In this document: one piece after another, positions 8,648 through 30,082 of the stretch
Layout: every line of letters starts with the position of its first letter
Numbering within the stretch: position 1 is the first letter of the stretch
Source of the DNA: an uncultured Gammaproteobacteria bacterium
GTDB taxonomy: Bacteria; Patescibacteriota; Microgenomatia; UBA8517
Length of the DNA: 64,000 nt
Reading direction: 5' to 3'
NCBI GenBank assembly: GCA_964427735.1
Contig: CAYRUS010000001.1
Coordinates: 226,173 to 290,172 of the forward strand
Program-made: the position numbers and the translations under genes
The notes under the pieces: generated by a model
Databases searched by the model: none
What the model saw: the letters and a program-made list of their open reading frames with translations, nothing else
Told to the model about the DNA's origin: nothing

Positions 8648-8648
8648 A

Positions 8649-9332: not shown

Positions 9333-9333
9333 T

Positions 9334-10578: not shown

Positions 10579-11244
10579 ATGATAATTGATATTGTTACGC
10601 TATTCCCTGAAATGTTTGAGGGCCCATTTAGTGAATCAATAATAAAAAGAGCACAAGAAAAAGACCTTGTAAAAATCAATATTCATAATTTGAGGGATTG
10701 GGCTAGTGATAAACACAATACAGTTGACGACAGACCATATGGTGGTGGTCCAGGAATGGTAATAAAAGTTGATGTTGTAGATAAAGCACTTAAAGAAATT
10801 AAGAAACAAAAAAGAGGAACTACCCAAAAAATAGTATTACTAGAAGCAGCAGGTGAGATATTTACTCAAGAAAAAGCAGCTTCTTTGAGTAAAGTTGACC
10901 ATTTAATTCTCCTTGCAGGACATTACGAAGGCTTTGACGAGAGAGTAAGGGAACACTTAGTTGATGAGGTTATCTCTATAGGTAAGTTTGTTCTAACAGG
11001 TGGAGAATTGCCTGCCATGATTATAACAGATGCTGTCGTGAGATTAATTCCTGGAGTTTTAGGTAGTGAAGCATCTCTTAGCGAAGAGTCCTACAGCAAA
11101 CCAAACTGGCTAGAATACCCACAATATACAAGACCTGAAGAATATAATGATTGGAAAGTCCCTGAAATACTTCTATCCGGAGACCATAAGAGTATTGCTG
11201 AATGGAAAAAAAAGATGGCAGCTAAAGTGTCAAAGAAAGATTAG
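10579..11244 (+). CDS. trmD: tRNA (guanine37-N1)-methyltransferase
   Basis: MIIDIVTLFPEMFEGPF...RPYGGGPGMV...ILLAGHYEGFDERV are hallmark TrmD SPOUT motifs. Confidence 0.9.
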   Translation: MIIDIVTLFPEMFEGPFSESIIKRAQEKDLVKINIHNLRDWASDKHNTVDDRPYGGGPGMVIKVDVVDKALKEIKKQKRGTTQKIVLLEAAGEIFTQEKAASLSKVDHLILLAGHYEGFDERVREHLVDEVISIGKFVLTGGELPAMIITDAVVRLIPGVLGSEASLSEESYSKPNWLEYPQYTRPEEYNDWKVPEILLSGDHKSIAEWKKKMAAKVSKKD

Positions 11245-12475
11245 TAAAAAATTTATATATTTTCTTTATAACTTTAAACCCAATATTTTCTCTTTCCTTT
11301 TCCAAAATAATCATATTAACATCTGATATCTCGTGATCGTAACTTTTGTAACCTGGTCTACTTACTTTCAAAGATTTATTAACAGGTAGATAAGCAATTA
11401 CAAACTTACCGTCTTTTTGTGTTTTGGCTGTTTTATTTTCTGTATATACTTTTGCTCCTTCAATAGGAACATTAAGTTCATTCACAACTTTTGTACTAAT
11501 AACACTTGGTGTGTAAAAACCCTTTATAACATCAGCTGCTAAAGTTTCATTACCATTTTCTTCCCACAATCTAGTACTTCCACCAAAACCAACCCAATAA
11601 TTAATTCCTTCTACCAATTCTGTATCAGACAAATAAGTTAATGTTTCTTCTATCCACTCAGCTTGTTTTACATTGTCAAAACTCTCATGTATTTCTGGAA
11701 TTGGTGCTCCAAACTCACCAATTACAACTTTCCCACCACTTATTTCTGCAATTTCTCTTATGTCATCAGCAAATTCTTTTGGATCCTGAACATAGTGATC
11801 TACAACAACAATACCACCAAGGTTTCGGGTTGTTTCTTTGTTCATTATTAATCTAGCAACATCCCCATTCATTGAATAAAAATTAGAACGGACATCTCTC
11901 CCTAATTTTCTAAATGATTCTTTTGCAACTTTATATTCTTCAATTAAAAATTCTCTATGTCCATTTACATCATCATTAAACCTTGGATCTCCCGGGCCTC
12001 CATTCTCGCATTCGGTGCAAGATGTAAAAATATCTCCATCCTCAAACAAATAATTGTTTTTCAGTATAAATTCTTGAGTAAGTTTTATATGTTGCTCACG
12101 ATTTATATCTTCATACCCAAACCAGTTTTCCCACCCTGCAAAATTACCTCTAAACCAAACATTCAAATTATGTCTCCTTGCAGATTGTACCCATTTTTGT
12201 ATAAAAGGAATAAATTCCTCGTCGTAAGGAGTTCCAATAGCTACATGCGTTGCTCCTGTTTGGACTATTTTTAAAATTTGCCTATCAATTTCTTGATTAA
12301 AGGTAGGGTCAGTGGCTTTCTCTCTTGCCAAATCTCTCGAAAACTTCATAGTGTCAATTGACTGAACATTCCACCAAGTAATATTTTGTTGAGCAGAGAC
12401 ATCAGAAGCCAAGGCAAAAAAAAGCAACCAAACAATAATTATTTTGAAAAAGTTAATCATTAATTTTATATGCAC
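11222..12475 (-). CDS. secreted glycoside hydrolase-like protein (clan GH-A/GH5-like TIM barrel) with a C-terminal beta-sandwich domain
   Basis: Signal peptide (LLFFALASDVSA). WENW near strand 4 and VVIGEFG near strand 7 resemble the acid/base and nucleophile motifs of GH5-like enzymes. Its 3' end overlaps trmD convergently by 23 nt. Confidence 0.45.
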   Translation of the reverse strand: MHIKLMINFFKIIIVWLLFFALASDVSAQQNITWWNVQSIDTMKFSRDLAREKATDPTFNQEIDRQILKIVQTGATHVAIGTPYDEEFIPFIQKWVQSARRHNLNVWFRGNFAGWENWFGYEDINREQHIKLTQEFILKNNYLFEDGDIFTSCTECENGGPGDPRFNDDVNGHREFLIEEYKVAKESFRKLGRDVRSNFYSMNGDVARLIMNKETTRNLGGIVVVDHYVQDPKEFADDIREIAEISGGKVVIGEFGAPIPEIHESFDNVKQAEWIEETLTYLSDTELVEGINYWVGFGGSTRLWEENGNETLAADVIKGFYTPSVISTKVVNELNVPIEGAKVYTENKTAKTQKDGKFVIAYLPVNKSLKVSRPGYKSYDHEISDVNMIILEKERENIGFKVIKKIYKFFTNLSLTL

Positions 12476-14132
12476 TCCTAGAAAATACAGGTTCAGTCGT
12501 TAAATCTGGAAGATATTCATCCTCCAGTTCATATATGTCTGCAAAGGGATAACTCTCCATTAATTTGTATTTGTTCAATCCCTCGATTCCTCCTACTTCT
12601 TTCCAGGTTAAATCATTATTGTCGTGAGTTCTCACAATCACCCATCTTGCCCACTTCTCCGGTGCCTTAACTGCACTATCCCAGTAATCACCAGTTCCTT
12701 CGTGAATAAATCTCTTCATTGGCATTCCAGAAGTGAATATTATGGCATCATGAGAAGCTGCAGAGATAAGAACAAATCCTTCTTCTTCTGATGCATTATC
12801 CTTTAACCACGAGGATACTTCTGTTACGTTTTTCCCGCTTGACCCATAAAGTGCATCTTCTAAAGTTACAACATCAAAATTAACAAATGCAAAAAATATC
12901 ACAAACAATACAATACCTAGTATTGCAAACCTAAAGCTTTTTAACTTATCCATCAAATATCCTGAAAAGACTGCAATTGCAGGTGCAAGCATCAAGCCAT
13001 AGCGAACATTAAACCAGTTATCACCGGATATACCATTGATAAAAAGGACAGAATGACCCAAAAATAAAGCAATAATATTAAAGATGAATGGAGCAATTAA
13101 TGTCAAAATTGATATTTTAATTTCTGTTTTTTTTGTTTTATCTAGTAAGAAAAGAATTAGCCCAAGTAAACCTGCAAATGCAATTACAGTATATGAGTTG
13201 TAAAAAACAGCATAGGTATACACTTTAATTGATAAAAGTATATTCCCTTTGGTTAAGAGTTCTCCTGCTGCTTCTAATTGTTCCTGCTGAGCATGTGCAG
13301 AAAATGGACCAAAGGCAAAATACAAAGGGTCGCTAAAAATAAGCAAATTCCATAAAAACCACAAAAATACACCTAGCCCTGCTAAAGTTGAAAAAAATAT
13401 GACTGTTCCTGTTAGTTTTTTGTATGATTTTTTCTTTATTAAAAGTAATACAATTAAACCCGCAGAAAACATAAATAAAAACCAACCATCATATCGCACC
13501 AAGGTGGAAAGCATAATGAAAAATGCTGATTTTATTAAATCAAATATTTCTTCTTTTTCAGACCATAACAAAAAATAATAAGCCCCGGCAGTCATTGTAG
13601 CCATAAGAAGAATTTCTGTCATTGCGGTTGATTGCAAATACAAGATATTAAGATTTGCTGCAAATATAAAACTTCCAAAAACCCTACTATACAAACCAAC
13701 ACCTAATTTATTTAAGAAGAAATAAACCAGCATACCAGTAACAACAAAGGAGATCATAGAAACTACTGCTCCCGAAAGACCTGAATGCCACATAAAACTA
13801 TTCCATATTGTGGGCATCATCAAAATATGAGGTAATGGCAACCAAACAGAACCAAGCTGTGCTAATCCTGGTTTCAATCCTTCAACTACTCTTCTACCAA
13901 TATCAAGATGCGATCGTGCATCGTTATACAAAAGACTCATACCATTTTGATAGAACCAAATAAAAGTAAATATAGAAATAATGCTTAAAGCGAAAATTAA
14001 AATAAAAACAATTTTACTTTCTACAAAACTCTTTACTCTATTAAACCATTGAAAAGGCACAGTAATATTCCATACTGTTTCTTTCTTTGTTGATGATTTT
14101 TTGAGACTTATAAATTTACTCTTTTTTTTCAT
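12453..14132 (-). CDS. polytopic membrane protein, GT-C-like glycosyltransferase paralog
   Basis: 559 aa, at least 12 TM helices, a YNDARSHLDIGRR loop after TM1 and a large C-terminal soluble domain. This architecture parallels the neighbouring GT-C-like genes. Confidence 0.45.
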   Translation of the reverse strand: MKKKSKFISLKKSSTKKETVWNITVPFQWFNRVKSFVESKIVFILIFALSIISIFTFIWFYQNGMSLLYNDARSHLDIGRRVVEGLKPGLAQLGSVWLPLPHILMMPTIWNSFMWHSGLSGAVVSMISFVVTGMLVYFFLNKLGVGLYSRVFGSFIFAANLNILYLQSTAMTEILLMATMTAGAYYFLLWSEKEEIFDLIKSAFFIMLSTLVRYDGWFLFMFSAGLIVLLLIKKKSYKKLTGTVIFFSTLAGLGVFLWFLWNLLIFSDPLYFAFGPFSAHAQQEQLEAAGELLTKGNILLSIKVYTYAVFYNSYTVIAFAGLLGLILFLLDKTKKTEIKISILTLIAPFIFNIIALFLGHSVLFINGISGDNWFNVRYGLMLAPAIAVFSGYLMDKLKSFRFAILGIVLFVIFFAFVNFDVVTLEDALYGSSGKNVTEVSSWLKDNASEEEGFVLISAASHDAIIFTSGMPMKRFIHEGTGDYWDSAVKAPEKWARWVIVRTHDNNDLTWKEVGGIEGLNKYKLMESYPFADIYELEDEYLPDLTTEPVFSRSAYKIND

Positions 14133-14143: not shown

Positions 14144-15751
14144 TTAAATTACTTTTCTCAAAAAAAACTTCTGCAAATTGTTTAGCCCCAACTTTCTTTT
14201 GCTTTCATAAATAGCCAACCCATAAAGATACCCAAAACAAGTTAAAATAATTATTGCTGAAATTACTAAATAAAACTCCAATGGTTTTATGTGGTCTTTC
14301 AAATATGTATTATAAACATAGGATTTTGATCCTGAACTCATTAAATAGTCATAGTTTCGCTCAAATGTATATTTTTCCATTTTCCCTGACAACGTGCTCA
14401 AATGTGCAGCTTCAACTTTTGGAGGATTAAGATTTGAAGTTAAAGCCCCTAGTGAGTTAACTATTACGCCATAGCTTAATACAATAAAGAAGAAGAATAA
14501 AATCAAAAGTGATCCCTTTCTTTTTATAACATCCAAGGTAAAAGGTAGTGAAATTGCAAATATTGCATAACTAGGAATTAAATACCTGGACCCAAATGCC
14601 CAACCTCCCCATGGGTCACCCCACATCGAATAAATGATTAAGTTTAAAGAAACTATAGAAACAAGAAGAGAACTAATCTGTGAGTTTTTGCGAGATAATT
14701 CCACTAACCCATAAACTCCAAATAGCACAATAGTAGAATAAAAAATTACTCCTCTATCTAAACTAAATAAATGAACATAAAGCCCATTAATCATGTTTTG
14801 AGTATCAAAAAAACCTATCGAAGTTTTGGTTTCTTGTTCAATTTCATTTGCATCAAGACCCTTGTCAAAAGACTCAGGCAATCCCTGGTCATTTATTAAA
14901 TCAACACTAGAAACTGTTCCAGATAACTGGAGAGGATTTCCATATGCTTCATGATTATAAATAAAAAACATCACCAAAGGTATCAATGAAGCTAATATCG
15001 CCATTAATGTTTTTGATAAATTAAATTTAACTTTCAGAGTTTTATTTTTGGACTCTACCTTAATAATTTTTGAAACTGCAAGCAAGGCAATCGGAAACAT
15101 AAAAATGATACTAGGACTGTCTATTACTATAGAAGAAGCTATCAATACCCATACTACAGAATGTGCTAGTAACGAAGTTTCATATTTAATCAAAAGATAT
15201 ATCGAAAATAAAATTGCAAAAGCAGTTATATGATGCTGATAAAGAGTAGTTGAATAGGCGTAGGCAGGTGTGGCAAATAGAAAAGATAAAGCTCCAACTG
15301 CAGAAGCATTTGAAGAAGTACCTAAGTGACTGGAAATTCCCCTTATAATTAGTGCATTTAAAACTGCAAAAACACCTACAACAGCAAAAGCCCCATATTG
15401 AGAGACATTAAACATTTTTCCAAATAAATATCCCGGTATAGCTAAAAATGATACAGCTGGAGGAAAAAGTGAAACATATTTTCCATCAACATATCCTAAA
15501 TCAGGGGTAGTAAACCGTGCTAAAGGAAGGCTCAACTCCACACTGTCATTTTCTATCACTGAATAAAGCAAAGTAAATCTACCTTTTTCCGGAGAAAGTT
15601 CAAATGGATTATCAACTCTTGATTTAACAGAAAATAATTCATCTTCTTTTATATTGCCGTGAATTCCCTTTGTTGAAAACAAGACTATTATCAGACAAAA
15701 GACAACAAAGAAAACTTTTTCAAAGTTTATTTTAATTTTATTTTTTAACAT
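14144..15751 (-). CDS. polytopic membrane protein, GT-C-like glycosyltransferase paralog
   Basis: 535 aa, multi-TM, with an N-terminal extracytoplasmic loop carrying acidic residues (PDLGYVDGKY). Confidence 0.4.
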   Translation of the reverse strand: MLKNKIKINFEKVFFVVFCLIIVLFSTKGIHGNIKEDELFSVKSRVDNPFELSPEKGRFTLLYSVIENDSVELSLPLARFTTPDLGYVDGKYVSLFPPAVSFLAIPGYLFGKMFNVSQYGAFAVVGVFAVLNALIIRGISSHLGTSSNASAVGALSFLFATPAYAYSTTLYQHHITAFAILFSIYLLIKYETSLLAHSVVWVLIASSIVIDSPSIIFMFPIALLAVSKIIKVESKNKTLKVKFNLSKTLMAILASLIPLVMFFIYNHEAYGNPLQLSGTVSSVDLINDQGLPESFDKGLDANEIEQETKTSIGFFDTQNMINGLYVHLFSLDRGVIFYSTIVLFGVYGLVELSRKNSQISSLLVSIVSLNLIIYSMWGDPWGGWAFGSRYLIPSYAIFAISLPFTLDVIKRKGSLLILFFFFIVLSYGVIVNSLGALTSNLNPPKVEAAHLSTLSGKMEKYTFERNYDYLMSSGSKSYVYNTYLKDHIKPLEFYLVISAIIILTCFGYLYGLAIYESKRKLGLNNLQKFFLRKVI

Positions 15752-16502
15752 AATACTTTTCCGCCACTTTGGGAACTAACCTATTTGGAAATACCACATC
15801 AAATTGTGTTTTGTATTTTTTCATCAAATTTACTTTTTTATTATGGTCGGTTTTATAAACAAAAATTTTGTAAGATTTTTTAGAATGCTTTCCATATTTT
15901 TTCTCAGTGTTATATGGAAAGTCAGACCAATATATAATTTCTTCAAATACCCTCTCACAGGCATTTCTAACAATCACATGATCTACATGAGATCCATATG
16001 CAAATGGGCAAAAAACTATTGAGTTTTTGGGTATAATTTTTTTAAGTTTTTCTGCAATTTCATCTATTAAATTAATCTCGTAGCTAGAGATTTTTCCATT
16101 TGCAATATTTAACCTGTAAATAGGATAAACATGCATAAACTCTGGAACTACTCTTCCTAAAGTTTTTGCAACAAAACCTGTTTTTGTCCTCCATAAGGCA
16201 TCTGTGTAATCAAGATTTACAACATTTACACCTATGCTTTTAAACAAATTCTTGTCTGCATTTACACGATCTTCAAAAAGCTTTATTGGGTCTTCGAAGT
16301 TACAATTTTTTAAAAATCTATTAGCTGAGATAGTTTGCTTTCCATTACCTGCTTTTGTAAATACGTTAATAACATTGACATTGTTATTCTTGATTAGATT
16401 AAGCAGTAAAGATCCGCAGGAAAATACAGCATCGTCCAAATGTGGCGAAATAAAGTAAATGTTTTTATCTTTCATAATTTTATTTAAAGTTGGCTCTTTC
16501 AT
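15738..16502 (-). CDS. PIG-L/LmbE family N-acetylglucosaminyl deacetylase
   Basis: FISPHLDDAVFSCGSLL (the HxDD zinc motif) and GSHVDHVIV are diagnostic of the PIG-L family. Confidence 0.8.
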   Translation of the reverse strand: MKEPTLNKIMKDKNIYFISPHLDDAVFSCGSLLLNLIKNNNVNVINVFTKAGNGKQTISANRFLKNCNFEDPIKLFEDRVNADKNLFKSIGVNVVNLDYTDALWRTKTGFVAKTLGRVVPEFMHVYPIYRLNIANGKISSYEINLIDEIAEKLKKIIPKNSIVFCPFAYGSHVDHVIVRNACERVFEEIIYWSDFPYNTEKKYGKHSKKSYKIFVYKTDHNKKVNLMKKYKTQFDVVFPNRLVPKVAEKYYVKK

Positions 16503-16514: not shown

Positions 16515-17708
16515 TTAATTAGAAATAATTTCATTTAAATTACCTCTCTTATTGATCATTAAATTTTTATTTGCAATGTAATAATTTTTGAGTTCCTCTG
16601 ATATAAACTCGTCATATTTTTCTGACACAGAATTCCAATCATAATTTCTTGCGAATTTGTATGCTCTTTTTCCTATAGAAGCTCTTTTAACATCGTCTTT
16701 TAATATTTTTATTAATGCATTAGAAAGTGATCTTGAAGAAACTCTCTTGACTTTAATAGCAATACTTTCTGGAATCCATTTAAGTCCATCGATATCAAAA
16801 CATACGAGAGTTTTAGCATAGGAAAAGGTTTCTAGTGCAACTAAAGAAAATGTTTCAAATCTTGAAGGACAAACAACTACTATTGCGTCTTGGAATAATT
16901 TCTCTTTGGATGTCCCCTCTACTCTTCCAACTAATTTCACATTGTCTTGAAGTTTTTTGCTTTTAATTAGCTCTATTAATTCCTTTTCCTCTTTTTTGTT
17001 TCCATCACCTGCAATTATCAATTTAAAATTCAAATGCTTTTTAACTTCAGCAATAGCATTGATTAATAAATCTAAACCTTTTTGATTTATCTCTATCCTC
17101 CCGATAAATAAAATATGCTTTTCTTTATTAAAGTTTTGCTTAGGTATTTTTACACCATTCGGAATCACATTAATTGCTGCTTGCTTGTTTATTCTGGTAA
17201 TCTTTTCTCGTTGGGTTTCTGTTAACACAATAAATCTTCTGTAACACTTTAAACCGATTTTTTCGACTAAAGTTAAAGGTACAAAATACTTTCTTTTCAT
17301 ATCACTTGCTGAAAGCATATGGACAAGACCTATAACAGGTTTTTTTGTATAGAATTGTAAAAATGAGGTAGAAAAGGGGGGAGTAAAGCTCTCTATCCAT
17401 AGATCATAACTTTCTTTAAGAACATAAAATGGTAAAGTCAGGTGAAACAAAAGTTGGCTAACTCTAGGACCCCATAAAAACACACCAATTCTCTTATAAC
17501 TAACTCCATCCTTAACCTTGTTAATACTACCGGGATAATTCCCTGTTAAGACAATTAGCTCATATTTTTTGGATAATCTTTTAGCAACTTCATGAATAGC
17601 AAAAGCACCACCACCATTATAAAAAGGATTATCAATAGAATCATAAGTTGATATAACTATTTTATTATTCTTTTTTATTCGGTTTTTTATAATTTTTTCT
17701 GTTTTCAT
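16515..17708 (-). CDS. GT4 (group 1) glycosyltransferase
   Basis: C-terminal LFIGRIEINQKGLDLL...SRFETFSLVALETFSYAKTLV is the EX7E-type GT4 core. The start is placed at ATG 17706-17708 (MKTEKII); the ORF-track start at 17765 would overlap the upstream gene by 38 nt. Confidence 0.75.
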   Translation of the reverse strand: MKTEKIIKNRIKKNNKIVISTYDSIDNPFYNGGGAFAIHEVAKRLSKKYELIVLTGNYPGSINKVKDGVSYKRIGVFLWGPRVSQLLFHLTLPFYVLKESYDLWIESFTPPFSTSFLQFYTKKPVIGLVHMLSASDMKRKYFVPLTLVEKIGLKCYRRFIVLTETQREKITRINKQAAINVIPNGVKIPKQNFNKEKHILFIGRIEINQKGLDLLINAIAEVKKHLNFKLIIAGDGNKKEEKELIELIKSKKLQDNVKLVGRVEGTSKEKLFQDAIVVVCPSRFETFSLVALETFSYAKTLVCFDIDGLKWIPESIAIKVKRVSSRSLSNALIKILKDDVKRASIGKRAYKFARNYDWNSVSEKYDEFISEELKNYYIANKNLMINKRGNLNEIISN

Positions 17709-17727: not shown

Positions 17728-20700
17728 TTAATTGAATAAATTCTCCCTAGCCAAAGAAAGACCATCTATAACAACATTGCTGTCTTTGCGAATCTCGCTT
17801 TGCATAATCTGCAAAAAATCTCTGGCATTTTTCTCCCAACTAAATCCTTCAGCCCATTTTTTTGCTTTCCTGGAAAGCTCCATTCTTTTTTTATTGTTTT
17901 TTATAAGATCCTCCATAACTTGAGCAAGAGAATCTACATTTTTTAATGGAAACAAAATTCCAGTCTCTCCATCTACAACAGAGTCTTTAAGTCCACTTAC
18001 ATTAGAAGCTACAACAGGAGTAGCACATGCATTTGCCTCTAAAACTGTTATCCCCCAACCTTCAAAAGTAGATGGCTGAATAGATACCCAACTTTTTGAG
18101 AGCTCATTTATTTTTCTTTTCTCACTTACTTTCCCTGTAAGTTTTACAAACTCATTTAATTTATTTTTCATAATTAACTCCTTAATAAACTCTCTACTCT
18201 CACCGTCTCCTGCTATTGTTAATCTAGCTTCCGGGTATTTGGCTACAATCTTTGAGAATGCATTTATGGCAATATCTATGTTCTTATATGGCTTTAATCT
18301 ACCTAAATAAATAAATGATGGATATTTTGTCTTTTTAATTCCATTAACTTTTATATCTACACAAGGAGGAATAATGTGAATATTTTCTCTGTGATTAAGT
18401 CCGATTCTCTTTAACTCTTTTTTTGTTGATTCAGATACAGTAATAATAGTGCTTTTTCTATATGCAATCGGTATTAATTTCCCTTCTAAAAACATCGCAA
18501 TTCTGTTTAACGGAAACGGTAATAGCTGTCTGTGCACATCTTGGTGGATATGATGCAAAACAAGAATTTTGGGTAAGCGAGAATAAAATGGAGTAAAAAA
18601 CGGAATACCGTTTTCGCAATCAATTACAATGTCAAACTTTCCTCTAAATTTGATTGTGTAGTATAAAAATGCCCAAAGATAAACAGTATAAAATCCACCT
18701 CTTCTTATTATTTTTACCCCATCTATTTTTTCTGTACGTTTTGATTTTTGATCGCTACCGCAAAAAATTGTCACTTCATGTCCTTCCTTTACCCAATTTT
18801 TAGCTAAATTATGAATATAAACTTCAGCACCGCCTGCCCAAACATGCTTAATATCTCTCCAATTAAAAACCAATATTTTTAAACTACTAGCTTCTTTAGT
18901 TGAAGTGTTATTAAAGTTTGTGAATAAACCAAACAGGTCCTCAATATTTCCAATAATAGAGCCTGATTTGCTATAAACAATGTGCAACAGAGACACGACC
19001 AAAAGCTGTGTAATTGCAAGTCCGGATGCTATATTTGCTATCTCAACAAATGAAGAATGATAATTTGAAATAGCAAAAACTTGTACAAGGGAAAATCCTA
19101 CTGACAAAATTGCAAATGAATAATCATTTTTAATTAGGTGATAAGTTACAATTCCCACTGACACAGTAAAAGCAACCATCCCAATACAGAACCTAATTAA
19201 ATAGGGCAAAATTGGATAAGCTTTTGAGCCAAAGAGAATTGGAACTGTATAAAAACCAAACCAACCAATAAATACAAATCCAATTAAAGATGATGCAGTT
19301 GAAGCTAGAAGTAGCTTATTAAATATAGAAATAGTTTCTAAACCTTCTCCTTCTCTTTTACTTATCAGAGGTATAAAAAACTGAGAAAACAAAGTACCTA
19401 GATAAAAAACAATTTTCCCTGATAAAGAAAGCAAAGCGTAAATTCCTGCTTCTTCTGAAGGTAAGTAATGCTTTGCCATCACAACATCAATGCTCAAAAA
19501 TGCAACGGCAGATATATTTGTAAGCAATGAGGCAGAAAAGAAAGTGGTAGGAAATCTTAATAATTTTTCTGAAAGCTTGTTTGTTTTAACAAATCGTGTT
19601 TTTGCAATTACTAATTCACTTAATATAAATGCCACAACAACTGAAGCAGGAATAGCAACATAAATAAGCTCTGTATTATCTAACTCAATCGCAATGACAG
19701 TAAAAATTAATTTAGTCACTGCCTCAATAAGTAAAACAAATCCCAAGGTATAAAATTTTATGTTTCCTGATAAATATCCCTTATTTGCAGCTAGTAAAAA
19801 TCCTACTGTAAAAACAGGAAAGAAACTCAAGAAAGGCAAAATATCTGCTGTTTTAAAGTAGGAAAATAAATATGGATTTATTAGAAGCCATGATAAAGTT
19901 ATCAAAAATGAATATAAAACTATTCTTTTTTTTGTATTATCAAGAAAGCATCTGATTGGAAGCTTAACTTTCCCAAAGATATAACCGCTTTTATAAGAAA
20001 TCGCAGTATATAAAGAAACAAAAACAATGCCAACAATTCCAAATATGTTGGACATCAAACTTACCGTACCAAATTCATCAAAATCCAGATTGCGACCAAG
20101 ATATGCATTATAGAAAAAGTTTGCAAAATTAAAAAAGACAGTTACCCCAAACAAGAAAAGAAAAGAACCTTTTTCAGAATATTTCATCACATATTGTTTC
20201 AATAAATTTAACCTTGGCTTTGGCTGAGGTTGAGTAATTTGGATAGAAATCTTTTTCTTTTGAGGTGATTTTGGACCACCTTTTTTAAGATGAAGTCCAT
20301 GAATTGTTTTTTCCCAATAATGTGGTTTTACAATTAATTGATAAAAAGCAATTACAGCAGAGACACTTGCCATCATCCAATAAAATGGAATAAAAAAGAC
20401 ATGGTAAACCAAATTCCATTCATTTCTTTTGGCAAGCCCAATCATGTAGCTGTAGAAATATAGAAAATTTCCAAATACCAAACAGACCACAGCAACGTAA
20501 AAAACTAGCGGAGGAAATAAAGATTCAATTTGTAGACCAACATAATCATAAAATACAAAGTAAGAAATGGTTGCAATCCAAAAAATAGGGTTAATTATTA
20601 TAAAAACCATCCTCATACCAATAATCAGCTGGAACAAAATAGTATGGATTCCACTTTCCTTAAAAAATTGAACTGGGTTTCTCATATGTACCAGATAGGT

Positions 20701-22419
20701 TTGAAAGTAGCCCTTAATCCACCTTGATCTTTGCCTTAACCAATTTTTTAGATTACTGTTTGCTTCTTCATAGGTTGTTGAATCAATAATTGCAGTTTTG
20801 TAACCTGCCTTAAACAATCTGACTCCTAAGTCACAGTCTTCTGTAACATTAAATGGATCCCATCCATGAAGCTTACTTAAGTTATCTTTTCTAAAATGGT
20901 TGCTTGTTCCTCCAAGGGGAATACTTGTTCCTATTGTCTGTAGTCCAGGTAAAATTAGATCAAACCACAAAGAGTACTCTGCGGTAAAAAGACGAGTTAG
21001 GAAATTGTATTTACTATTGTAATAATTTAGTTTTGATTGCAAACATACATAGTTTTTTGGGAGTTTTTTGAAGGCAAGATAAGCTTTTTTAAGCTGTAGA
21101 GGATCAGGCTTGTCCTCTGCATCATAAATTACTATGTACTCTCCTTTTGAATGGAATAAACCATAATTGCAGGCCTTTGGTTTTGTTTTTGGCTTTGAAT
21201 CAGGAACAATTAAAACTTTTATGTACTTAGGTAAATTTATTTTTTTTGCTGTATTGATTGTTTCTGTGTCATCTTCCTCTAAAAGTAAAAGTACATCGAG
21301 CTTGCCTTTAGGCCAATCCAAATTTTTAATTGCTTCTACAAAATGAGGAAGCACTGAAGCTTCTTTGTACAAAGGGCAAAGAATACTATAAACAGGAAGG
21401 TCTTTGTTTTTAACAGCTTTTAGTTCTTTGTCTGGTATCGAAATTTCTGGAGATTTCCCCAAGCTTGTGGTGAGAATTGCCGCTGAAAACGCTAAATCCA
21501 AAAAATAAATTAGTGTCATTACTGCAATAAAGACAATTATTAAAAGCTTCAAATTAAGCACTGCTCCAATAAGAGCAAGCACAAGTAATGTTAGGAAAAA
21601 TAGTTTTTGATTAATTGTAAAAGTTGTGATTGCTGATTTATCTACGGGTAAATCTGTATAAGTAACGAATTTTTTACCTTTGTAAAAAATAGTAGGAAAT
21701 TTTGCGTATTTATCGTATATTTTGTAAACTTTTGAAGGCTTAAATTTAAGAATTAATGAGTTTTTGGCAATTTCGTATGATGCACTTAAGATATTTATTT
21801 TTGAACTGCCCTTGTTTCTTTTAGTAAACTCAATATCAATTCCCACTATACTTTCACCCAAATCTAAGGCAGTTTTTAGTAAAGATAAATCTAATGTCCA
21901 AGGAGAAACATCTTCATCCTTAATTTGACTAATGATCTCTTTTTTGAAGACTTTCATTCCAGATTGAGTGTCTACTTTAAATCCGTGCAGCAGTCTTTCA
22001 AAAAAAAGTAGATGAAGCTTTGATAATATTTTCCTTTTTAAGTCAACATCTCTGTAGATTCTATTGCCTACTACAACACCATGCTTTTGTGATAGCTTTA
22101 GCATTTCAGGTAATTTTTCAGGCGGGTACTGAAGATCCCCATCTATCATTGCTATTTTGATATATTTAGCTTTTTTAACTCCTTCAATAATACTATAAGA
22201 TTTCCCCTGCTTTCCTTTTTTGGGTAATATTTTTATTGGTTTTCTACCTTTGTTTTTTTTAATTTCTTTTACTGTTTTGTCTGTTGAAGCATCATCTACA
22301 AAAATAATCTCATATTTGATTTTCGCTTTCCTCATGACCTCGGAAATACGTTTTATGAGATTTGCTATATTACCCTCTTCATTCCAAACAGGGACAATGA
22401 TGGACATTTCCTTCTTCAT
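17728..22419 (-). CDS. giant multidomain glycosyltransferase: GT2 + processive GT2 (QxxRW) + about 14-TM region + GT4
   Basis: 1563 aa. Residues about 1-230 are GT2 (IIVPVWNEEG...VDDASTD...DGDLQ). Residues about 330-620 are a second GT2 with DAED and QRSRWIKG (cellulose/chitin-synthase-like processive motif), followed by TM helices. A further polytopic block follows. Residues about 1180-1563 are GT4 (GGAEVY...GRLKPYKNID...FEGWGITVLEANACATPVV). Confidence 0.8.
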   Translation of the reverse strand: MKKEMSIIVPVWNEEGNIANLIKRISEVMRKAKIKYEIIFVDDASTDKTVKEIKKNKGRKPIKILPKKGKQGKSYSIIEGVKKAKYIKIAMIDGDLQYPPEKLPEMLKLSQKHGVVVGNRIYRDVDLKRKILSKLHLLFFERLLHGFKVDTQSGMKVFKKEIISQIKDEDVSPWTLDLSLLKTALDLGESIVGIDIEFTKRNKGSSKINILSASYEIAKNSLILKFKPSKVYKIYDKYAKFPTIFYKGKKFVTYTDLPVDKSAITTFTINQKLFFLTLLVLALIGAVLNLKLLIIVFIAVMTLIYFLDLAFSAAILTTSLGKSPEISIPDKELKAVKNKDLPVYSILCPLYKEASVLPHFVEAIKNLDWPKGKLDVLLLLEEDDTETINTAKKINLPKYIKVLIVPDSKPKTKPKACNYGLFHSKGEYIVIYDAEDKPDPLQLKKAYLAFKKLPKNYVCLQSKLNYYNSKYNFLTRLFTAEYSLWFDLILPGLQTIGTSIPLGGTSNHFRKDNLSKLHGWDPFNVTEDCDLGVRLFKAGYKTAIIDSTTYEEANSNLKNWLRQRSRWIKGYFQTYLVHMRNPVQFFKESGIHTILFQLIIGMRMVFIIINPIFWIATISYFVFYDYVGLQIESLFPPLVFYVAVVCLVFGNFLYFYSYMIGLAKRNEWNLVYHVFFIPFYWMMASVSAVIAFYQLIVKPHYWEKTIHGLHLKKGGPKSPQKKKISIQITQPQPKPRLNLLKQYVMKYSEKGSFLFLFGVTVFFNFANFFYNAYLGRNLDFDEFGTVSLMSNIFGIVGIVFVSLYTAISYKSGYIFGKVKLPIRCFLDNTKKRIVLYSFLITLSWLLINPYLFSYFKTADILPFLSFFPVFTVGFLLAANKGYLSGNIKFYTLGFVLLIEAVTKLIFTVIAIELDNTELIYVAIPASVVVAFILSELVIAKTRFVKTNKLSEKLLRFPTTFFSASLLTNISAVAFLSIDVVMAKHYLPSEEAGIYALLSLSGKIVFYLGTLFSQFFIPLISKREGEGLETISIFNKLLLASTASSLIGFVFIGWFGFYTVPILFGSKAYPILPYLIRFCIGMVAFTVSVGIVTYHLIKNDYSFAILSVGFSLVQVFAISNYHSSFVEIANIASGLAITQLLVVSLLHIVYSKSGSIIGNIEDLFGLFTNFNNTSTKEASSLKILVFNWRDIKHVWAGGAEVYIHNLAKNWVKEGHEVTIFCGSDQKSKRTEKIDGVKIIRRGGFYTVYLWAFLYYTIKFRGKFDIVIDCENGIPFFTPFYSRLPKILVLHHIHQDVHRQLLPFPLNRIAMFLEGKLIPIAYRKSTIITVSESTKKELKRIGLNHRENIHIIPPCVDIKVNGIKKTKYPSFIYLGRLKPYKNIDIAINAFSKIVAKYPEARLTIAGDGESREFIKELIMKNKLNEFVKLTGKVSEKRKINELSKSWVSIQPSTFEGWGITVLEANACATPVVASNVSGLKDSVVDGETGILFPLKNVDSLAQVMEDLIKNNKKRMELSRKAKKWAEGFSWEKNARDFLQIMQSEIRKDSNVVIDGLSLARENLFN

Positions 22420-22586: not shown

Positions 22587-23312
22587 TTAAGCAGCTTTTT
22601 TTGCCCAAAATTTAGTAGCTTCAAATAATGACTCAAAAGTTCCTGCGTCAGACCAAAACCCTTTTAATTCTGACCAATAAAGTTTGTTTGCTTTCGCATA
22701 TTCAGTATTAAGATCAGAAACTTCTAATTCGCCACGCTTTGATGGCTTTAAATTTCTGATGTGATCAAAAACATTATTGTCATAAATATACAATCCTGTC
22801 TGAACATAATTACTCTTTGGCTTTTTGGGTTTTTCTTCTACCTTTAGAATTTTTTTGCCTGCTTTATCAAACACTGGAACTCCAAATCTTTGCAGCTTTT
22901 CTTTCTCCTTATATTTTTTTAGAAATACCAACGCACCTTCTTTAAAACGTTTTACAGCTTCCGATATATCGGCGTCTGTTGTGTTATCCCCAAGTATGAC
23001 TGTGATTGGATGACCATCTGCAAAATCTTCTGCTAAAGAAATCGCATTTGATATTCCTCCTTCTTTTTCTTGATAGGTATATTCCAAATGATTAATGCCT
23101 AACTGTTTACCTGTTTTAAGTACACGAATAAAATGCCCTGCATGGGGTCCACCTGTAACAATTAATATATCTTTAACACCTGCATCAACAAGAGTTTGAA
23201 TAGGATAAAAGATCATTGGCTTATCATAAATAGGAAGTAAATGTTTATTGGTAGCATGCGTTAGTGGATAAAGCCTTGACCCTAAACCGCCTGCAAGTAT
23301 TACACCTTTCAT
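22587..23312 (-). CDS. sugar-phosphate nucleotidyltransferase, glucose-1-phosphate thymidylyltransferase (RfbA)-like
   Basis: MKGVILAGGLGSRLYPLT...K..LPI is the RfbA/GalU N-terminal motif. The start is placed at ATG 23310-23312. Confidence 0.8.
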   Translation of the reverse strand: MKGVILAGGLGSRLYPLTHATNKHLLPIYDKPMIFYPIQTLVDAGVKDILIVTGGPHAGHFIRVLKTGKQLGINHLEYTYQEKEGGISNAISLAEDFADGHPITVILGDNTTDADISEAVKRFKEGALVFLKKYKEKEKLQRFGVPVFDKAGKKILKVEEKPKKPKSNYVQTGLYIYDNNVFDHIRNLKPSKRGELEVSDLNTEYAKANKLYWSELKGFWSDAGTFESLFEATKFWAKKAA

Positions 23313-25559: not shown

Positions 25560-26663
25560 ATGCAGTCTAGGCCTTTAAATAGAAACCTCCACAAAGCCAA
25601 CAAAGCAAAAAAGGATGAATTCTATACTCAACTCACAGATATAGAAAAAGAGCTCAGGCACTACAAAGACCAGTTTAAAGGTAAAGTGGTTTACTGCAAT
25701 TGTGATGATCCTTTTGAAAGCAATTTTTTCAAATATTTTGCATCTAGTTTCAATAGCTTGGGGCTAAAAAAATTAATAACAACAAGCTTCAGCGGCTCAC
25801 CAATAACTGGAAAACAGCTATCTCTTCTGGACATGGAAGGACTAAAGCCAGAGGGCAAGCAGCCTTTTAAGATTGTAATAACAGAAGTACCAGACAAAAA
25901 TGCAGATGGTGCAGTTGATATTGCAGATGTGGAATGGCTTTTAAAACACGACGGCAATACCTCAACTCCACTAAAAGAAAATGGAGACTTTAGGAGTGAA
26001 GAATGCATTGAGCTTTTAAAAGAATCAGATATTGTTGTCACCAACCCACCTTTTAGCTTATTTCGCGAATATGTAGCACAGCTGGTCGAGTATGATAAAA
26101 AGTTTTTGATAATTGGAAATTTGAATTCGATTACTTATAAAGAAATATTTAAGTTAATTAAAAACAATCAATTATGGCTTGGGTATAATAACGGACATAA
26201 AGTTTACATGGTTCCAGATGATTATGAACAAAAAAATATTTTTATTGGTGAGGATGGGAAAAAATATGCAAAGATGGGAAATACCGGTTGGTTTACAAAT
26301 CTTGATGTCAGTAAAAGACATGAAATTCTTACGCTGTATAAGAAATATAGTCCAGAAGAGTATCCCAAGTATGCAAATTATGATGCAATAGAAGTATCTA
26401 AAGTGTCAGATATCCCAATGGATTATGAGGGAGAAATGGGAGTACCTGTAACATTCTTGGAAAAATATAATCCAGACCAATTCGAGATTATCGGTTCAAG
26501 TAGTAATTTATCAAATCCAATAAAAACTCCAAAAGGATTAGTTTATCGATATACAGACCGTAATGGGTATGTCCGACAGGCAGCAAATGAGCGTTTTGCT
26601 TTACCAGATGGCGATACATGGAGACGAATTTATGACCGGATTGTGATTAAAAAAATAAAATAA
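25560..26663 (+). CDS. N6-adenine DNA methyltransferase, EcoRI-methylase-like family
   Basis: The catalytic motif IV VVTNPPF is present. The N-terminal KDEFYTQ...VVYCNCDDPFESNFFKYF resembles the EcoRI-methylase family N-terminus as I recall it. No cognate restriction endonuclease gene was recognised nearby. Confidence 0.65.
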   Translation: MQSRPLNRNLHKANKAKKDEFYTQLTDIEKELRHYKDQFKGKVVYCNCDDPFESNFFKYFASSFNSLGLKKLITTSFSGSPITGKQLSLLDMEGLKPEGKQPFKIVITEVPDKNADGAVDIADVEWLLKHDGNTSTPLKENGDFRSEECIELLKESDIVVTNPPFSLFREYVAQLVEYDKKFLIIGNLNSITYKEIFKLIKNNQLWLGYNNGHKVYMVPDDYEQKNIFIGEDGKKYAKMGNTGWFTNLDVSKRHEILTLYKKYSPEEYPKYANYDAIEVSKVSDIPMDYEGEMGVPVTFLEKYNPDQFEIIGSSSNLSNPIKTPKGLVYRYTDRNGYVRQAANERFALPDGDTWRRIYDRIVIKKIK

Positions 26664-26736
26664 GGTATAGGATTATTAATCAGACACAAAAAAGTCAACG
26701 GAGTTAAAGCATGAAGATAAGTACAAAAGTAAATTT

Positions 26737-29520
26737 ATGAACGAAAACACAGGAACAGTAAGTCCACTATTAAAGAACTTTTTTGAAAACTTCTTGTCTA
26801 CAGAACTAGAAAAAGAAGATATCTCTGACGAATATTTAACTCTTTTGAAAATATTATGGCTTAGTTTTGACGAGATTATTACAAAAACTAAAATTACAAG
26901 GCGTATTTATACACTACAACTTATTGAAAAATATCTTATTAATAGCGAGTACCGCAAATCCGTCGATGAAACAGAATTGCCGAAAACTGACGTTTTTCTT
27001 GAGTCTCAGGGTTCTGACACACCTAAAATTAAACTAAAGAAAATCAATATTGTAAATTTCCGAGGATTTAGAGCAAACTCCGATGGTACTGGAAGAAAAA
27101 TCTTTTTCAACGATAAAGCAAGCTTATTTTTTGCACCTAATGGCGGAGGTAAAAGTAGTCTTTGTGAAGCTTTAGAATGGACACTTACCGGTGATACTTC
27201 AGAGCATGTGCAACGTAGCACCGAATCGACAGACACTTATTTTCAAAATAGGGATATTGGTGAACCCAGCTATAAGAAAACTAAAATTGATATGCATGAA
27301 GGGTTCAATCCTGACATCCCTAACATTGCTTTTGATAGATGCTTTTTAGAGAAAAATAGAATCGAAAAGTTTGCCAAGATTGCTACGCAAAAAGGTGTTG
27401 AAGTTCAAAATATACTGGGTGAATTATTTGGGCTTACAGAGATCGTAGATTTTTTCAAAGAGTTTGGACAAGACTTATTTCCCACACCTAATGAAAAAGG
27501 TGAAAGAGAAAATTGGCAGACTTGGCTAGATTGGGAGGTAAAAAAGCGTGAATTGGAAAAGGGTTTAGAAGAGTCAAAAAGAGAAGAAATGACAGCTTTT
27601 GAGGAATTTAACAGACTTCTTGATAACAAAAAATACGATGATAAGAAAAAAGAGATAGAAGAAGAAATTAAGAAACTAAAAAATGAACTAGAGTCTTTAA
27701 GCGTGGATAATAGTACTGAGTTTTCAAGCGAAGATTTTTTGAAGATCGTTGATGAATTTCTTTATAAATTAAAACAGTGGAAAGAATGTAAGAATGAAAT
27801 TGAAAAAAATGCAGCCAATCTGAATTTCGAAAGCTTGTATCAGACTGCAAGTAAGATTTTTCAAAACAATCAAAACATAAGTGAATGTCCTCTCTGTGAT
27901 ACACCAATTACACAGAATGGCGGTCTACTTTCAAAGCATAAATGTGTAGTTACCGATCCTAGAGATAAAACCAAGTCAGAGCTAAAAAAATTGGAAGCCT
28001 TAACTGCATTGAAAAGCAAAAAATCAAACACCGAGTCCGATATTAGAAACCATTTCGCAAAATTTAAAGATGAGTGGACAAAAGTTCACTCAAACTTAAA
28101 AGATGAAAATTGGTCCGTTATATCAAATAATGTCTCTAATCCTGAAATACCAAATATCAATACACAAAGTATCGACTCACTTGTATATGATGACTTTGAG
28201 GCATTTGTTGATAGTTGCGAAAAAGCGTTAAATCAAGACTTCTCTCAAATAAAAGAGGTGGAAAAAATCATCTCTTCATATAAGCACAAAAGGCAAGAGT
28301 TAAAGTCAAGGAAGCAAGAACAAAACGAAAAAATTAACAAACTAAGTGAAACTCTCGATAATCTCGAAACAGCATATGAAACTTACTCGAATAAGAAAGC
28401 TATATGCGAGAAAGGCAATGTGAGATTGGAAAAGTTAAAAAAACAATCTAGAAACTCGGGTGTTTTTAAGAAACTGCTAGACGAGTACACTAAGCTATAT
28501 GCCTCACTTCATGACTTTCTTACATCCGCCATACTGACAGAAGCAAAAGATATTGACAGCTTAGTGACTGGTTTTTATCGTGCACTAAACCTTCACGACC
28601 ACGATGGTGAGATTGTTAAAGTTATAAAATTTCCAAAGAAAATTCAGGATGATTTTTGTCTCATTTATAAGAAGGACGAAGAAAGCATATGTAATGCGTT
28701 GCAGGTATTAAGTGAGGGACATTTAAAAACCCTCGGATTGGCAGCTTTACTTGCAAGAGCAGCTAGATTAAATACTTCGTTACTTGTTTTTGATGATGCT
28801 ATAAACGCAATAGATTCAGATCACAGGGACAACATAGCTCACCTTCTTACTGGAAGGTTTGGGGATGATCAGGGTGTGTTGGCCTTTGGAAACAAATGGA
28901 GGCAGATAAAAGATTACTTGGGCAATTGCCAATTTATTATTACCTCCCATGACCGTTTCTTTGACGAAAAGATCGCTAACCTTTTCGAAAAAGACAACCA
29001 AACAAGATATGTTCTTTATTGCAGTCAGAATGGAATCGATTTTTGCGAAAGAGGCACCCCGGCAAATTTTGAGAAGAAAATAGAGGACTACCTAAATCCA
29101 GCTACTCAAGATATTCGATCCGCAATATTTTACTGTCGTATTTGGCTAGAAGATATTCTCTTTAACATTGCAATTCATTTTAGAAAACCGGGTAATAATA
29201 AGCGGATTGAGTTCGAGAACATCATGGATAGGAGAACTAAATCTTTGAAAAACCCAGAATTAATTGTGCTTCTGGATAAGTTGGTATCTAATTTAAACAA
29301 CAAGGATGCATCAGACGAATATAAACAAATTGCCAGTATATTGGAACAAATTAAACAGGAAAATGATGGGAAATATGTTTGGTTCTTTGAAATATTAAAC
29401 CAAGAGAGCCATTATCGAAGGTTTGACCACGTAGATGTCTCAAATGCACCTACAAGCAAAGAGGTAGAGACTATTTTCGAGAATATTCAAAAGATACATA
29501 AGTTGTATTCAGGAATATAA
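26737..29520 (+). CDS. Rad50/SbcC/RloC-like ABC-type ATPase with long coiled-coil, CxxC hook-like motif and an unknown C-terminal domain
   Basis: 927 aa. Walker A FAPNGGGKSS (about residue 135), coiled-coil-rich middle with CPLC (about residue 385), signature-like LSEGHLKTLGLAALLA, Walker B LLVFDDA, H-loop ITSHD, then a 170-aa C-terminal extension. Confidence 0.7.
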   Translation: MNENTGTVSPLLKNFFENFLSTELEKEDISDEYLTLLKILWLSFDEIITKTKITRRIYTLQLIEKYLINSEYRKSVDETELPKTDVFLESQGSDTPKIKLKKINIVNFRGFRANSDGTGRKIFFNDKASLFFAPNGGGKSSLCEALEWTLTGDTSEHVQRSTESTDTYFQNRDIGEPSYKKTKIDMHEGFNPDIPNIAFDRCFLEKNRIEKFAKIATQKGVEVQNILGELFGLTEIVDFFKEFGQDLFPTPNEKGERENWQTWLDWEVKKRELEKGLEESKREEMTAFEEFNRLLDNKKYDDKKKEIEEEIKKLKNELESLSVDNSTEFSSEDFLKIVDEFLYKLKQWKECKNEIEKNAANLNFESLYQTASKIFQNNQNISECPLCDTPITQNGGLLSKHKCVVTDPRDKTKSELKKLEALTALKSKKSNTESDIRNHFAKFKDEWTKVHSNLKDENWSVISNNVSNPEIPNINTQSIDSLVYDDFEAFVDSCEKALNQDFSQIKEVEKIISSYKHKRQELKSRKQEQNEKINKLSETLDNLETAYETYSNKKAICEKGNVRLEKLKKQSRNSGVFKKLLDEYTKLYASLHDFLTSAILTEAKDIDSLVTGFYRALNLHDHDGEIVKVIKFPKKIQDDFCLIYKKDEESICNALQVLSEGHLKTLGLAALLARAARLNTSLLVFDDAINAIDSDHRDNIAHLLTGRFGDDQGVLAFGNKWRQIKDYLGNCQFIITSHDRFFDEKIANLFEKDNQTRYVLYCSQNGIDFCERGTPANFEKKIEDYLNPATQDIRSAIFYCRIWLEDILFNIAIHFRKPGNNKRIEFENIMDRRTKSLKNPELIVLLDKLVSNLNNKDASDEYKQIASILEQIKQENDGKYVWFFEILNQESHYRRFDHVDVSNAPTSKEVETIFENIQKIHKLYSGI

Positions 29521-29585
29521 TCCACTGTGAAGAATCAACTTCATACTGTTAGCAAAATTATAAAATCTCCTTTAAGGTAATTAAG

Positions 29586-29936
29586 TCAAAATATCAAAAT
29601 TAATAGAGATGACATTATTATAATCGGAAAAATTAAGTGTAGTAAAAGTATGAAAAATAAACCACTATTTCCTTTATTGTAATATGTTTTATATAACAAT
29701 TCTGGAAAGCCAGTAGTAACAAAACCAGCCAGAAAGAAAATTACAGACACAACAACACCCACAGTCCGATAAGACGAATCACTAGTCAAAAGGATTGTGG
29801 CTTGTGAGAAAAAGTAATACTCAAAAGAGGTTGTATTTTTCTCGAAAAATTCTCCCAGAAGCTCGAATATATATGCCAGACCAAGAAAGAATCTTGCCAA
29901 TGGCCTGGTGAATGCTGATTTTGCGTGTTTTTCCAT
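29586..29936 (-). CDS. small membrane protein, hypothetical
   Basis: 116 aa with 3 predicted TM helices, convergent with the ATPase gene. Confidence 0.35.
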   Translation of the reverse strand: MEKHAKSAFTRPLARFFLGLAYIFELLGEFFEKNTTSFEYYFFSQATILLTSDSSYRTVGVVVSVIFFLAGFVTTGFPELLYKTYYNKGNSGLFFILLLHLIFPIIIMSSLLILIF

Positions 29937-30082
29937 ACTTTAATTATAATAAAAAGCCACATTACTGCACATTTTGAAATATGATTTCTTCAATACACAC
30001 ACCCTCCAGATGATATAGCTTCACACCCCTCACTTTTTGTAATCACAATTGACTGCTGGGACTGCACATAGTTTAATGAATT

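Follow-up and report, generated by a model that had tools for sequence, protein, structure and literature searches.

Bacterial surface polysaccharide routes are usually sorted into synthase-dependent, Wzx/Wzy-dependent and ABC-dependent ones, and the hallmark proteins of synthases and flippases belong to two pathways that are usually treated as alternatives. Operons of synthase-dependent systems typically include a hydrolase gene, and a GT4 glycosyltransferase followed by a de-N-acetylase is the pattern of MshA/MshB, BshA/BshB and PIG-A/PIG-L. A three-component logic, in which a lipid-phosphate-linked sugar is made, flipped and used outside, has been described for CsbB/GtcA/YfhO and GtlA/GtcA/GtlB (PMC7389260). 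NfrB is a cyclic di-GMP (c-di-GMP)-activated exopolysaccharide synthase that carries MshEN (PMC8669469). We analyzed a stretch of 64,000 nucleotides (nt) of contig CAYRUS010000001.1 (positions 226,173 to 290,172; the whole stretch is referred to as the window) in which a single gene on the minus strand, at 17728..22419, encodes a fusion protein of 1563 amino acids (aa). The protein consists of four modules, A to D: a GT2 glycosyltransferase, a processive GT2 glycosyltransferase, a MOP transporter and a GT4 glycosyltransferase, each of which displays the features that define its superfamily. All parts have known folds; what is new is the architecture, in which one chain unites a synthase with a MOP flippase, a lipid-sugar synthase and a GT4 enzyme and is tied to GT-C glycosyltransferases. 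The protein looks like the core of an uncharacterized cell-surface glycan pathway, and its function is inferred throughout. Public records name its orthologues only 'glycosyltransferase', and the full-text literature yielded no description of the ABCD fusion or of the pair of B with a GT-C enzyme, NfrB being the sole precedent found.

The open reading frame (ORF) starts with ATG and runs without an internal stop; Met5 is a possible alternative start that would give a 1559-aa form (P0001). At a GC content of about 31%, stops make up approximately 7-8% of random codons and 1563 open codons would arise by chance at about e^-125 (by arithmetic), so the ORF is not a chance open frame. GC across the ORF is approximately 30-33%, with no break in composition. 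Positions 2453-24132 of the window match, at 100% identity, an 84-kb Logan contig of sequencing run SRR7082966, on which an independent gene call likewise returned 1563 aa. A neighbor gene of the fusion ORF recurs in identical form both on a 760-kb NCBI contig and in run SRR7082976. Among 5.8 billion proteins searched there were more than 120 full-length orthologues (1514-1604 aa, 46-53% identity, 98-100% query cover) from NCBI, JGI, ENA and Logan, and the named ones belong to Woese-, Roizman-, Gottesman- and Curtissbacteria and other Microgenomates. The lengths of the junctions between modules differ among orthologues and the reading frame is always kept. The original prediction, which was made from the window alone, had proposed a single-polypeptide fusion and named an assembly chimera as the finding that could overturn it. 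Independent assembly and orthologues agree on a genuine single ORF: identical DNA in the Logan assembly together with more than 120 full-length orthologues rules out a chimera or a frameshift. The modules are separate genes in some genomes, and the splits in two of the loci surveyed below (L012 and L024) resemble frameshifts, but with identical independent DNA, this many full-length orthologues and variable linkers in a constant frame, we consider the chance that the long ORF is an artefact of assembly, frameshift or gene calling that joins three or four genes to be negligible. The fusion ORF encodes a real and widely conserved membrane protein of the Microgenomates, which belong to the candidate phyla radiation (CPR).

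Pfam places a GT2 domain at residues 6-140 (2.5e-37), Glyco_tranf_2_3 and Glyco_trans_2_3 at 344-619 (3.9e-27 and 2.5e-23) and GT4 domains at 1196-1357 and 1362-1522 (7.4e-20 and 1.3e-42). The catalytic motifs of these three glycosyltransferase domains are intact, and their catalytic residues are invariant in 28 orthologues. The three domains in one polypeptide and the cellulose-synthase-like character of the central one were thus read correctly in the original prediction, with processivity of the latter remaining a prediction; the polytopic membrane region, which it had treated as an extension of the synthase, is instead a fourth, separate MOP module. Hydropathy, taken for the single protein and averaged over a 120-member family, gives 18 transmembrane (TM) segments in place of the approximately 14 counted before: two at 272-320, four at 591-692 and twelve at 751-1148. 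Since 2, 4 and 12 helices lie between the domains, the four soluble domains would all be cytoplasmic, and Lys/Arg-rich loops and Lys-rich linkers fall on the predicted cytoplasmic side. The architecture thereby appears topologically coherent, with every glycosyltransferase domain predicted to face the cytoplasm. Modules B and C are joined by a Lys/Pro/Gln-rich linker (residues 721-744; 20188..20259, minus strand), and the wider junction (residues 709-752) measures 12-72 residues among orthologues.

Module B (residues 246-720; 20260..21684, minus strand) is a BcsA/PgaC-like processive GT2 domain with TM helices on both sides, two at the N-terminal and four at the C-terminal end, and it is the most conserved of the four modules. 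It carries KPKACN (413-418), DAED (433-436), TED (526-528) and QRSRW (563-567), of which DAED, TED and QRSRW are invariant in the 28 orthologues, and in a search of PDB sequences it matches BcsA (4hg6) at 4.8e-7. With BcsA, PgaC, IcaA, NfrB and the hyaluronan and chitin synthases it shares the GT-A core, the D, DxD (DAED), TED and QxxRW signatures and flanking TM helices, and the helices flanking its catalytic domain are predicted to be able to form a translocation channel. Module B differs from these processive synthases in having a constant GT-C partner and in being fused to three other enzymes. The best NCBIfam models were PgaC_IcaA, CelA and the XrtG-associated GT2, all far below their cut-offs: PgaC_IcaA (TIGR03937) scored 113.8 bits with the whole protein and 76.8 with B alone against a cut-off of 422.3, and BcsA/CelA (TIGR03030 / PRK11498) 55.6-57.9 bits against 699. 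Identity is 20% to E. coli PgaC and 21% to E. coli NfrB, and a hidden Markov model (HMM) of the module-B family gave E. coli BcsA 72 bits, PgaC 29.5 and NfrB 19. These scores and identities rule out module B as PgaC, BcsA or NfrB; the low scores against their models and the roughly 20% identity mark it as a family of its own among the processive membrane GT2 synthases. Pfam found neither PilZ nor MshEN in the fusion protein. BcsB, PgaD and an outer-membrane partner were absent among the scanned neighbors, in a scan that included no search aimed at them.

Relatives of the central domain were collected from 185,579 species genomes, which held at least 594 loci with such genes; the best 80 were kept, and module HMMs were run on all ORFs of 85 loci. 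In several Actinobacteria and Chloroflexota (L068, L071, L077, L079 and L081) module B is fused to two to six N-terminal tandem MshEN c-di-GMP receptor domains, the orthologue in L071 having six matched MshEN stretches. The MshEN-bearing orthologues support module B as a regulated synthase of a secreted polysaccharide, with the difference that E. coli NfrB has its MshEN at the C-terminus and the module-B orthologues have theirs at the N-terminus.

Module C (residues 745-1165; 18925..20187, minus strand) has twelve TM helices of the MOP superfamily (Wzx/PST-MurJ-MATE fold). The window copies of module C and of two neighboring polytopic proteins, w535 and w559 (described below), have no Pfam match; their families surfaced when all orthologues were scanned, and C and w559 were in addition modeled with AF2 and compared by Foldseek. 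Twelve of 36 module-C orthologues match Polysacc_synt (PF01943; best 3.8e-11), two Polysacc_synt_3 and two MatE. The model (predicted local distance difference test, pLDDT, 85.9; predicted template modeling score 0.86) has 49 PDB matches at E<=1e-3, and those listed are MurJ, MATE and WzxE, the lipid III flippase, with query-based template modeling scores (TMq) of 0.54-0.75, the matches to these three along the full length of the module lying at 0.6-0.75; a profile search of PDB sequences gave nothing useful. On this model, module C is an autonomous MOP-superfamily transporter of the flippase type. It shares the twelve helices and the MOP fold with Wzx/WzxE and MurJ, and like PelG with PelF it is paired with a GT4 enzyme; unlike Wzx, MurJ and PelG it shares its polypeptide chain with glycosyltransferases, a synthase among them. 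A Pel-like reading of C and D was rejected: no C orthologue matched Pfam PelG at E<0.01, and PelF is absent among the 25 best of 66 NCBIfam matches of the fusion protein.

With a profile of C-type MOP proteins, 1.84 billion representatives yielded 492 clusters at E<=1e-30. Among the best 150 clusters, 51 are stand-alone, approximately 36 are CD, 9 ABCD and approximately 10 BCD, and 21 have another C-terminal domain. One protein (P0268, 737 aa) carries a C-terminal GT2 domain with weak similarity to GtrB in place of GT4, and approximately 20 further representatives of 700-1000 aa carry a different C-terminal domain. P0257, of the same family, had no PDB match.

Module A (residues 5-245; 21685..22407, minus strand) is a GT2 domain of the DPMS/GtrB/ArnC type. 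Its PDB sequence matches are Pyrococcus DPMS (5mlz, 2.5e-16), Synechocystis GtrB (5ekp, 1.3e-15) and ArnC (7e-11), and D43, D93-G-D95-L-Q97 (DGDLQ) and R201..G204.S206-K207 (RxxGxSK) are conserved. The DxDxQ and RxxGxSK motifs are signatures of the DPM1/GtrB/ArnC family. NCBIfam scores were below the cut-offs for both PgfS (66.9 bits; cut-off 500) and ArnC (62.4; cut-off 529), and the data support a predicted membership in the DPMS/GtrB/ArnC group at superfamily level only. Module A itself is without TM helices; the two that come next belong to the B profile, stand-alone B proteins start shortly ahead of these, and one stand-alone A protein spans only 273 aa. Module A would thus be tethered to the membrane solely via B. 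Within the window, module A shares 32% identity (8e-21) with a stand-alone GT2 protein (3177-3890) that adjoins a PMT_2 GT-C gene, and 27% with a GT2-GtrA_DPMS_TM fusion (6317-7486). The former lies in a minus-strand pair at 1600-3890, a 237-aa DPMS-type GT2 adjoining a 526-aa PMT_2 GT-C protein; the latter, also on the minus strand, is a 389-aa GT2 fused to the flippase-like GtrA_DPMS_TM domain. With two further DPMS-type systems in the window, this small genome appears strong in extracytoplasmic glycosylation by lipid-phosphate sugars.

Module D (residues 1180-1545; 17785..18882, minus strand) is a GT4 enzyme of the GT-B fold (Glyco_transf_4 and Glycos_transf_1) with R1374/K1379 and an EX7E motif, E1453-x7-E1461, of which E1453 and E1461 are invariant. 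Its nearest solved relatives in the PDB sequence search include PimB', PimA, MshA and TarM, and its NCBIfam scores are 98 bits for MshA (cut-off 462) and 84 for BshA (cut-off 274).

Across the 85 loci the modules occur in many arrangements. All four lie in one ORF in approximately 20 loci, and BCD proteins occur in Amesbacteria and others. Adjacent genes encode AB and CD in L017, L041, L045, L049 and L051, B and CD in L052 and L053, B and C in Levybacteria, and AB and C in L044. ABD proteins without the MOP module are found in L022, L026, L033 and L046, and AB next to D in L030; AB is alone in L029, L036-L039 and L058, A and B are separate genes in Clostridium drakei, and B is alone in Chloroflexota, Actinobacteria, Firmicutes and Brocadiia (45-57% identity). 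Splits are thus found in other lineages, as the original prediction had considered, yet the single-ORF form is common and the modules are far from always separate. These patterns of fusion and fission point to functional coupling of the modules. In L031 (809-6513) and L040 (9941-15582) only the C-terminal half of the MOP module lies between B and D, and a separate gene for a complete MOP protein comes next, an arrangement suggestive of an intermediate in fission or duplication. Three paralogous AB genes, each adjoining a w559-type gene, also occur in L040. Many fusion loci with CPR-type neighbors (among them L008, L009, L010 and L022) are publicly recorded as 'uncultured Gammaproteobacteria', 'Bdellovibrionales' or 'Bacteroides', probably as mislabeled metagenome-assembled genomes.

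The constant partner of module B is w559, a polytopic protein encoded at 12453..14132 (minus strand). Eight of 31 w559 orthologues match PMT_2 (best 2.6e-8), and the first outer loop contains an invariant Y69-N-D71-A-R-S-H75, with D71 invariant after TM1. Its AF2 model (pLDDT 76.4) identifies w559 as a predicted GT-C-fold glycosyltransferase, the top 36 Foldseek matches being almost all GT-C enzymes (STT3, PglB, ALG12/9, ArnT, DPY19, AftD and Emb). It has more than 2110 homologues; the named ones are nearly all 'hypothetical protein', and none has a Pfam domain. Downstream partners were counted with neighbor HMMs in the 56 loci that have at least 9 kb of downstream flank, and a w559-type GT-C enzyme lies beside B in 43 of these. 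Minimal loci consist of AB and w559 (L036, L038, L039, L048 and L058), and in Ktedonobacteria, Chloroflexia and Thermogemmatispora B and a w559-type GT-C enzyme (PMT_2) form single proteins of 958-1290 aa (L060, L061, L062, L064, L065 and L080). The near-universal core of the system is B plus GT-C.

The other genes between the fusion and w559 and beyond are likewise on the minus strand, and the fusion gene heads a conserved operon with them and w559. GT4' (16515..17708; 397 aa), a paralogue of module D, starts 19 nt past the fusion stop codon, and a PIG-L/LmbE-family de-N-acetylase identified by Pfam follows at 15738..16502. PIG-L comes directly after GT4' in 14 loci, and in L035 one ORF holds GT4 and PIG-L. 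The polytopic protein w535 (14144..15751) is a GT-C-like (PMT_2-like) candidate, with 5 of 34 orthologues matching PMT_2 (best 5.4e-6); profile searches of PDB sequences with w559 and w535 gave nothing useful. Module D and w535 occur together in 31 loci, D without w535 in 3, w535 without D in 2 and neither in 20. The signal-anchored exoprotein w417 (11222..12460) has a putative clan GH-A TIM barrel followed by CarboxypepD_reg, and a GEFG motif with E254 among its invariant acidic residues. It is probably a clan GH-A hydrolase, the matches being weak: one to the glycoside hydrolase GH2 6ncy, and Glyco_hydro_cc in 4 of 28 members (best 8e-4), alongside CarboxypepD_reg in 13 of 28. It is present only where w559 occurs (29 loci).

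These partners bear on the proposal with which the analysis began, a self-contained synthase-exporter in which the N-terminal GT2 primes, the central GT2 polymerizes and translocates, the membrane region exports and the GT4 domain decorates in the cytoplasm. Processive motifs with flanking TM helices are present and all domains lie on one chain. Against this, module C also occurs as a stand-alone gene or fused to GT4 only, and is a transporter in its own right by its Pfam and AF2/Foldseek matches; module A, by its PDB matches and its DGDLQ and RxxGxSK motifs, falls into a family of polyprenyl-phosphate sugar synthases and into no known primer class; and the conserved downstream GT4', PIG-L, two GT-C candidates and hydrolase-like protein carry the pathway beyond the fusion protein. 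We regard a self-contained machine as very unlikely.

In systems such as GtrB/GtrA/GtrC, CsbB/GtcA/YfhO, GtlA/GtcA/GtlB and ArnC/ArnEF/ArnT a GT2 enzyme, a flippase and a GT-C enzyme are likewise encoded together, and their three-step logic fits the parts found here. The present locus differs from them in several ways: its GT2 module A is devoid of TM helices and joined to a polymer synthase; the flippase role would fall to a MOP protein with 12 TM helices in place of a small GtrA/GtcA or SMR-type one; there are two GT-C candidates; and the sugar would be transferred to what the fused synthase makes, in place of teichoic acid or O-antigen. Unlike Wzx systems, the conserved cluster contains neither a Wzy polymerase nor an initiating phosphoglycosyltransferase. 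Equivalog-level membership in PgaC, BcsA, NfrB, MshA, BshA, ArnC or PgfS was rejected, with scores far below the cut-offs. By analogy, the fusion protein would work like a BcsA/PgaC-type synthase combined with a Gtr/Arn-type three-component system and a GT4/PIG-L priming pair.

We propose a composite model, to which we assign a probability of roughly 0.45, in which an inner-membrane 'megasynthase' gathers the steps at the cytoplasmic face and the downstream partners act outside. Module B would turn nucleotide sugar into a backbone that is extruded via its own TM channel, while module A would load a sugar onto polyprenyl phosphate; once flipped, this lipid-linked sugar would serve as donor for w559, which would glycosylate or extend the emerging polymer on the outer face. 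On the inner face, module D, GT4' and PIG-L would build a lipid-linked primer or anchor containing glucosamine (GlcN), which C would flip and on which w535 would then act, and w417 would trim or release the product. These CPR bacteria would in this way obtain an envelope polysaccharide that is decorated and possibly lipid-anchored. The sugars, the acceptors and the order of steps are given here as we infer them. The acceptor of w559 is most likely the nascent product of B, because w559 is the constant partner of B and is fused to it in Chloroflexota. The cargo of C is most likely the lipid-linked product of the D branch, since C is habitually fused to a glycosyltransferase, and this product is also the most likely substrate of w535. 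Module A can be tied to GT-C use by its donor-supplying family, by its 32% identity to the window GT2 beside PMT_2 and by the loci that have only AB and w559.

Several points weigh against this model. The putative donor and acceptor assignments between the parts draw on co-occurrence and on family paradigms, and phylogeny (Microgenomates versus the rest) is a confounder of the co-occurrence statistics. Some lineages do without C (ABD, and AB next to D), and the cargo of C is ambiguous because AB and w559 systems occur without an adjacent flippase. Module A lacks the TM or interface helices by which GtrB and DPMS bind polyprenyl phosphate. The GT-C assignment of w535 stems from 5 of 34 orthologues matching PMT_2, the hydrolase assignment of w417 is weak with a best E-value of 8e-4, and an LCP ligase, like Wzy and an initiating phosphoglycosyltransferase, was not seen in the conserved cluster.

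The recurrent division into AB and CD also admits two independent, co-expressed pathways whose products never meet: AB with w559 (and w417) for an exopolysaccharide, and CD with GT4', PIG-L and w535 for a lipid-linked glycan. AB and CD recur as adjacent genes in five loci, AB with w559 occurs alone, CD and stand-alone C are common, and the co-occurrence data partition along the same lines. However, the AB-CD fusion is kept at 46-53% identity in more than 120 orthologues, ABD forms retain D and lose C, and the operon order is fixed, which together favor a single coupled process; unrelated pathways would also seldom be fused. We consider two separate pathways unlikely.

A further alternative is a lipoglycan resembling glycosylphosphatidylinositol (GPI) or the mycobacterial phosphatidylinositol mannosides, lipomannan and lipoarabinomannan (PIM/LM/LAM). 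D, GT4' and PIG-L would form a GlcN-glycolipid, C would flip it and the two GT-C enzymes would polymerize from the donor made by A; B would be an accessory, contributing a second chain or a lipid-linked oligomer, and would not be the main polymerase. The parts list of GPI (PIG-A/PIG-L), MshA/MshB, BshA/BshB and PIM/LM/LAM is mirrored by GT4' and PIG-L with DPMS-like and GT-C enzymes, and there is a candidate for every GPI/LM role (GT4, PIG-L, flippase, DPMS-like enzyme and two PMT_2-like GT-C proteins); moreover C is usually fused to D, and D tracks w535. Yet B, a processive GT2 enzyme that has no counterpart in those systems, is the most conserved and the sole universal module, it pairs with w559 even without D, C, GT4' and PIG-L, and its QxxRW/TED signature speaks for B making a polymer. 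PIG-L itself is found in a minority of loci, the 14 mentioned above. We therefore regard a lipoglycan with B as accessory as somewhat doubtful.

Beyond the composite model, B and the w559-type GT-C enzyme could be an unrecognized two-part machine spread across Terrabacteria (CPR, Chloroflexota, Actinobacteria, Firmicutes and Dormibacterota), in which the synthase channel hands the nascent chain directly to the outer-face GT-C enzyme; the Microgenomates core would have captured A, C and D, giving a hybrid route for the main envelope glycan or lipoglycan. We put this forward as a tentative possibility, for its mechanism and its range as much as for the capture.

The fusion covalently links a BcsA-like synthase to a MOP flippase, hallmarks of two routes, and to a DPMS-like donor synthase. 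It is retained in hundreds of Microgenomates genomes, and in several phyla the synthase is also tied to a GT-C enzyme. The architecture would surprise specialists who hold synthase-dependent and flippase-dependent routes apart. The cell surfaces of CPR bacteria are almost unknown, and the fusion provides a testable candidate for the machinery behind their main envelope glycan. Two large families of 'hypothetical' membrane proteins can be named as GT-C, provisionally in the case of w535; more than 2100 homologues belong to the w559 family by itself. The fusions and fissions found in nature provide a ready map of coupled steps.

Upstream of the fusion gene, an RmlA-like sugar-1-phosphate nucleotidylyltransferase is encoded at 22587..23312 on the minus strand (Pfam NTP_transferase, 4.1e-54; NCBIfam rmlA 223.7 bits, under the cut-off of 360). 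RmlA-like homologues lie near orthologues in just 7 loci, and rml genes flank the orthologue in the two loci inspected for them, L001 and L004. No sugar was assigned from rml genes; only the RmlA-like gene adjoins the fusion in the window. Promoter-like sites near the fusion gene were fewer than in shuffles, with one 10/12 match at 22504-22476, 5' of the start, and the promoter/terminator scan gave no convincing internal terminator; neither scan result counts as evidence.

Elsewhere in the window, an HlyD-like adaptor, an ABC ATPase and a MacB/FtsX permease form a MacAB-type tripartite set on the plus strand (7583-10563), in a genome expected to be without an outer membrane. At 41311-44911, on the minus strand, a lamin-tail-domain protein, a PcsB-like coiled-coil/M23 peptidase, FtsX with an extracellular domain and an FtsE-like ATPase constitute a cell-division hydrolase module. 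An EcoRI-like adenine methylase (25560-26663; Pfam 1e-143), a 927-aa AAA_23/SMC_N protein (26737-29520) and a GmrSD_N and HNH endonuclease (31092-32195) make up a defense-type block (25560-32195) between a CAP-domain gene and a homologue of a Woesebacteria sortase gene. Since the CAP and sortase genes are adjacent in the syntenic Woesebacteria locus L001, this block is probably an inserted restriction or defense island.

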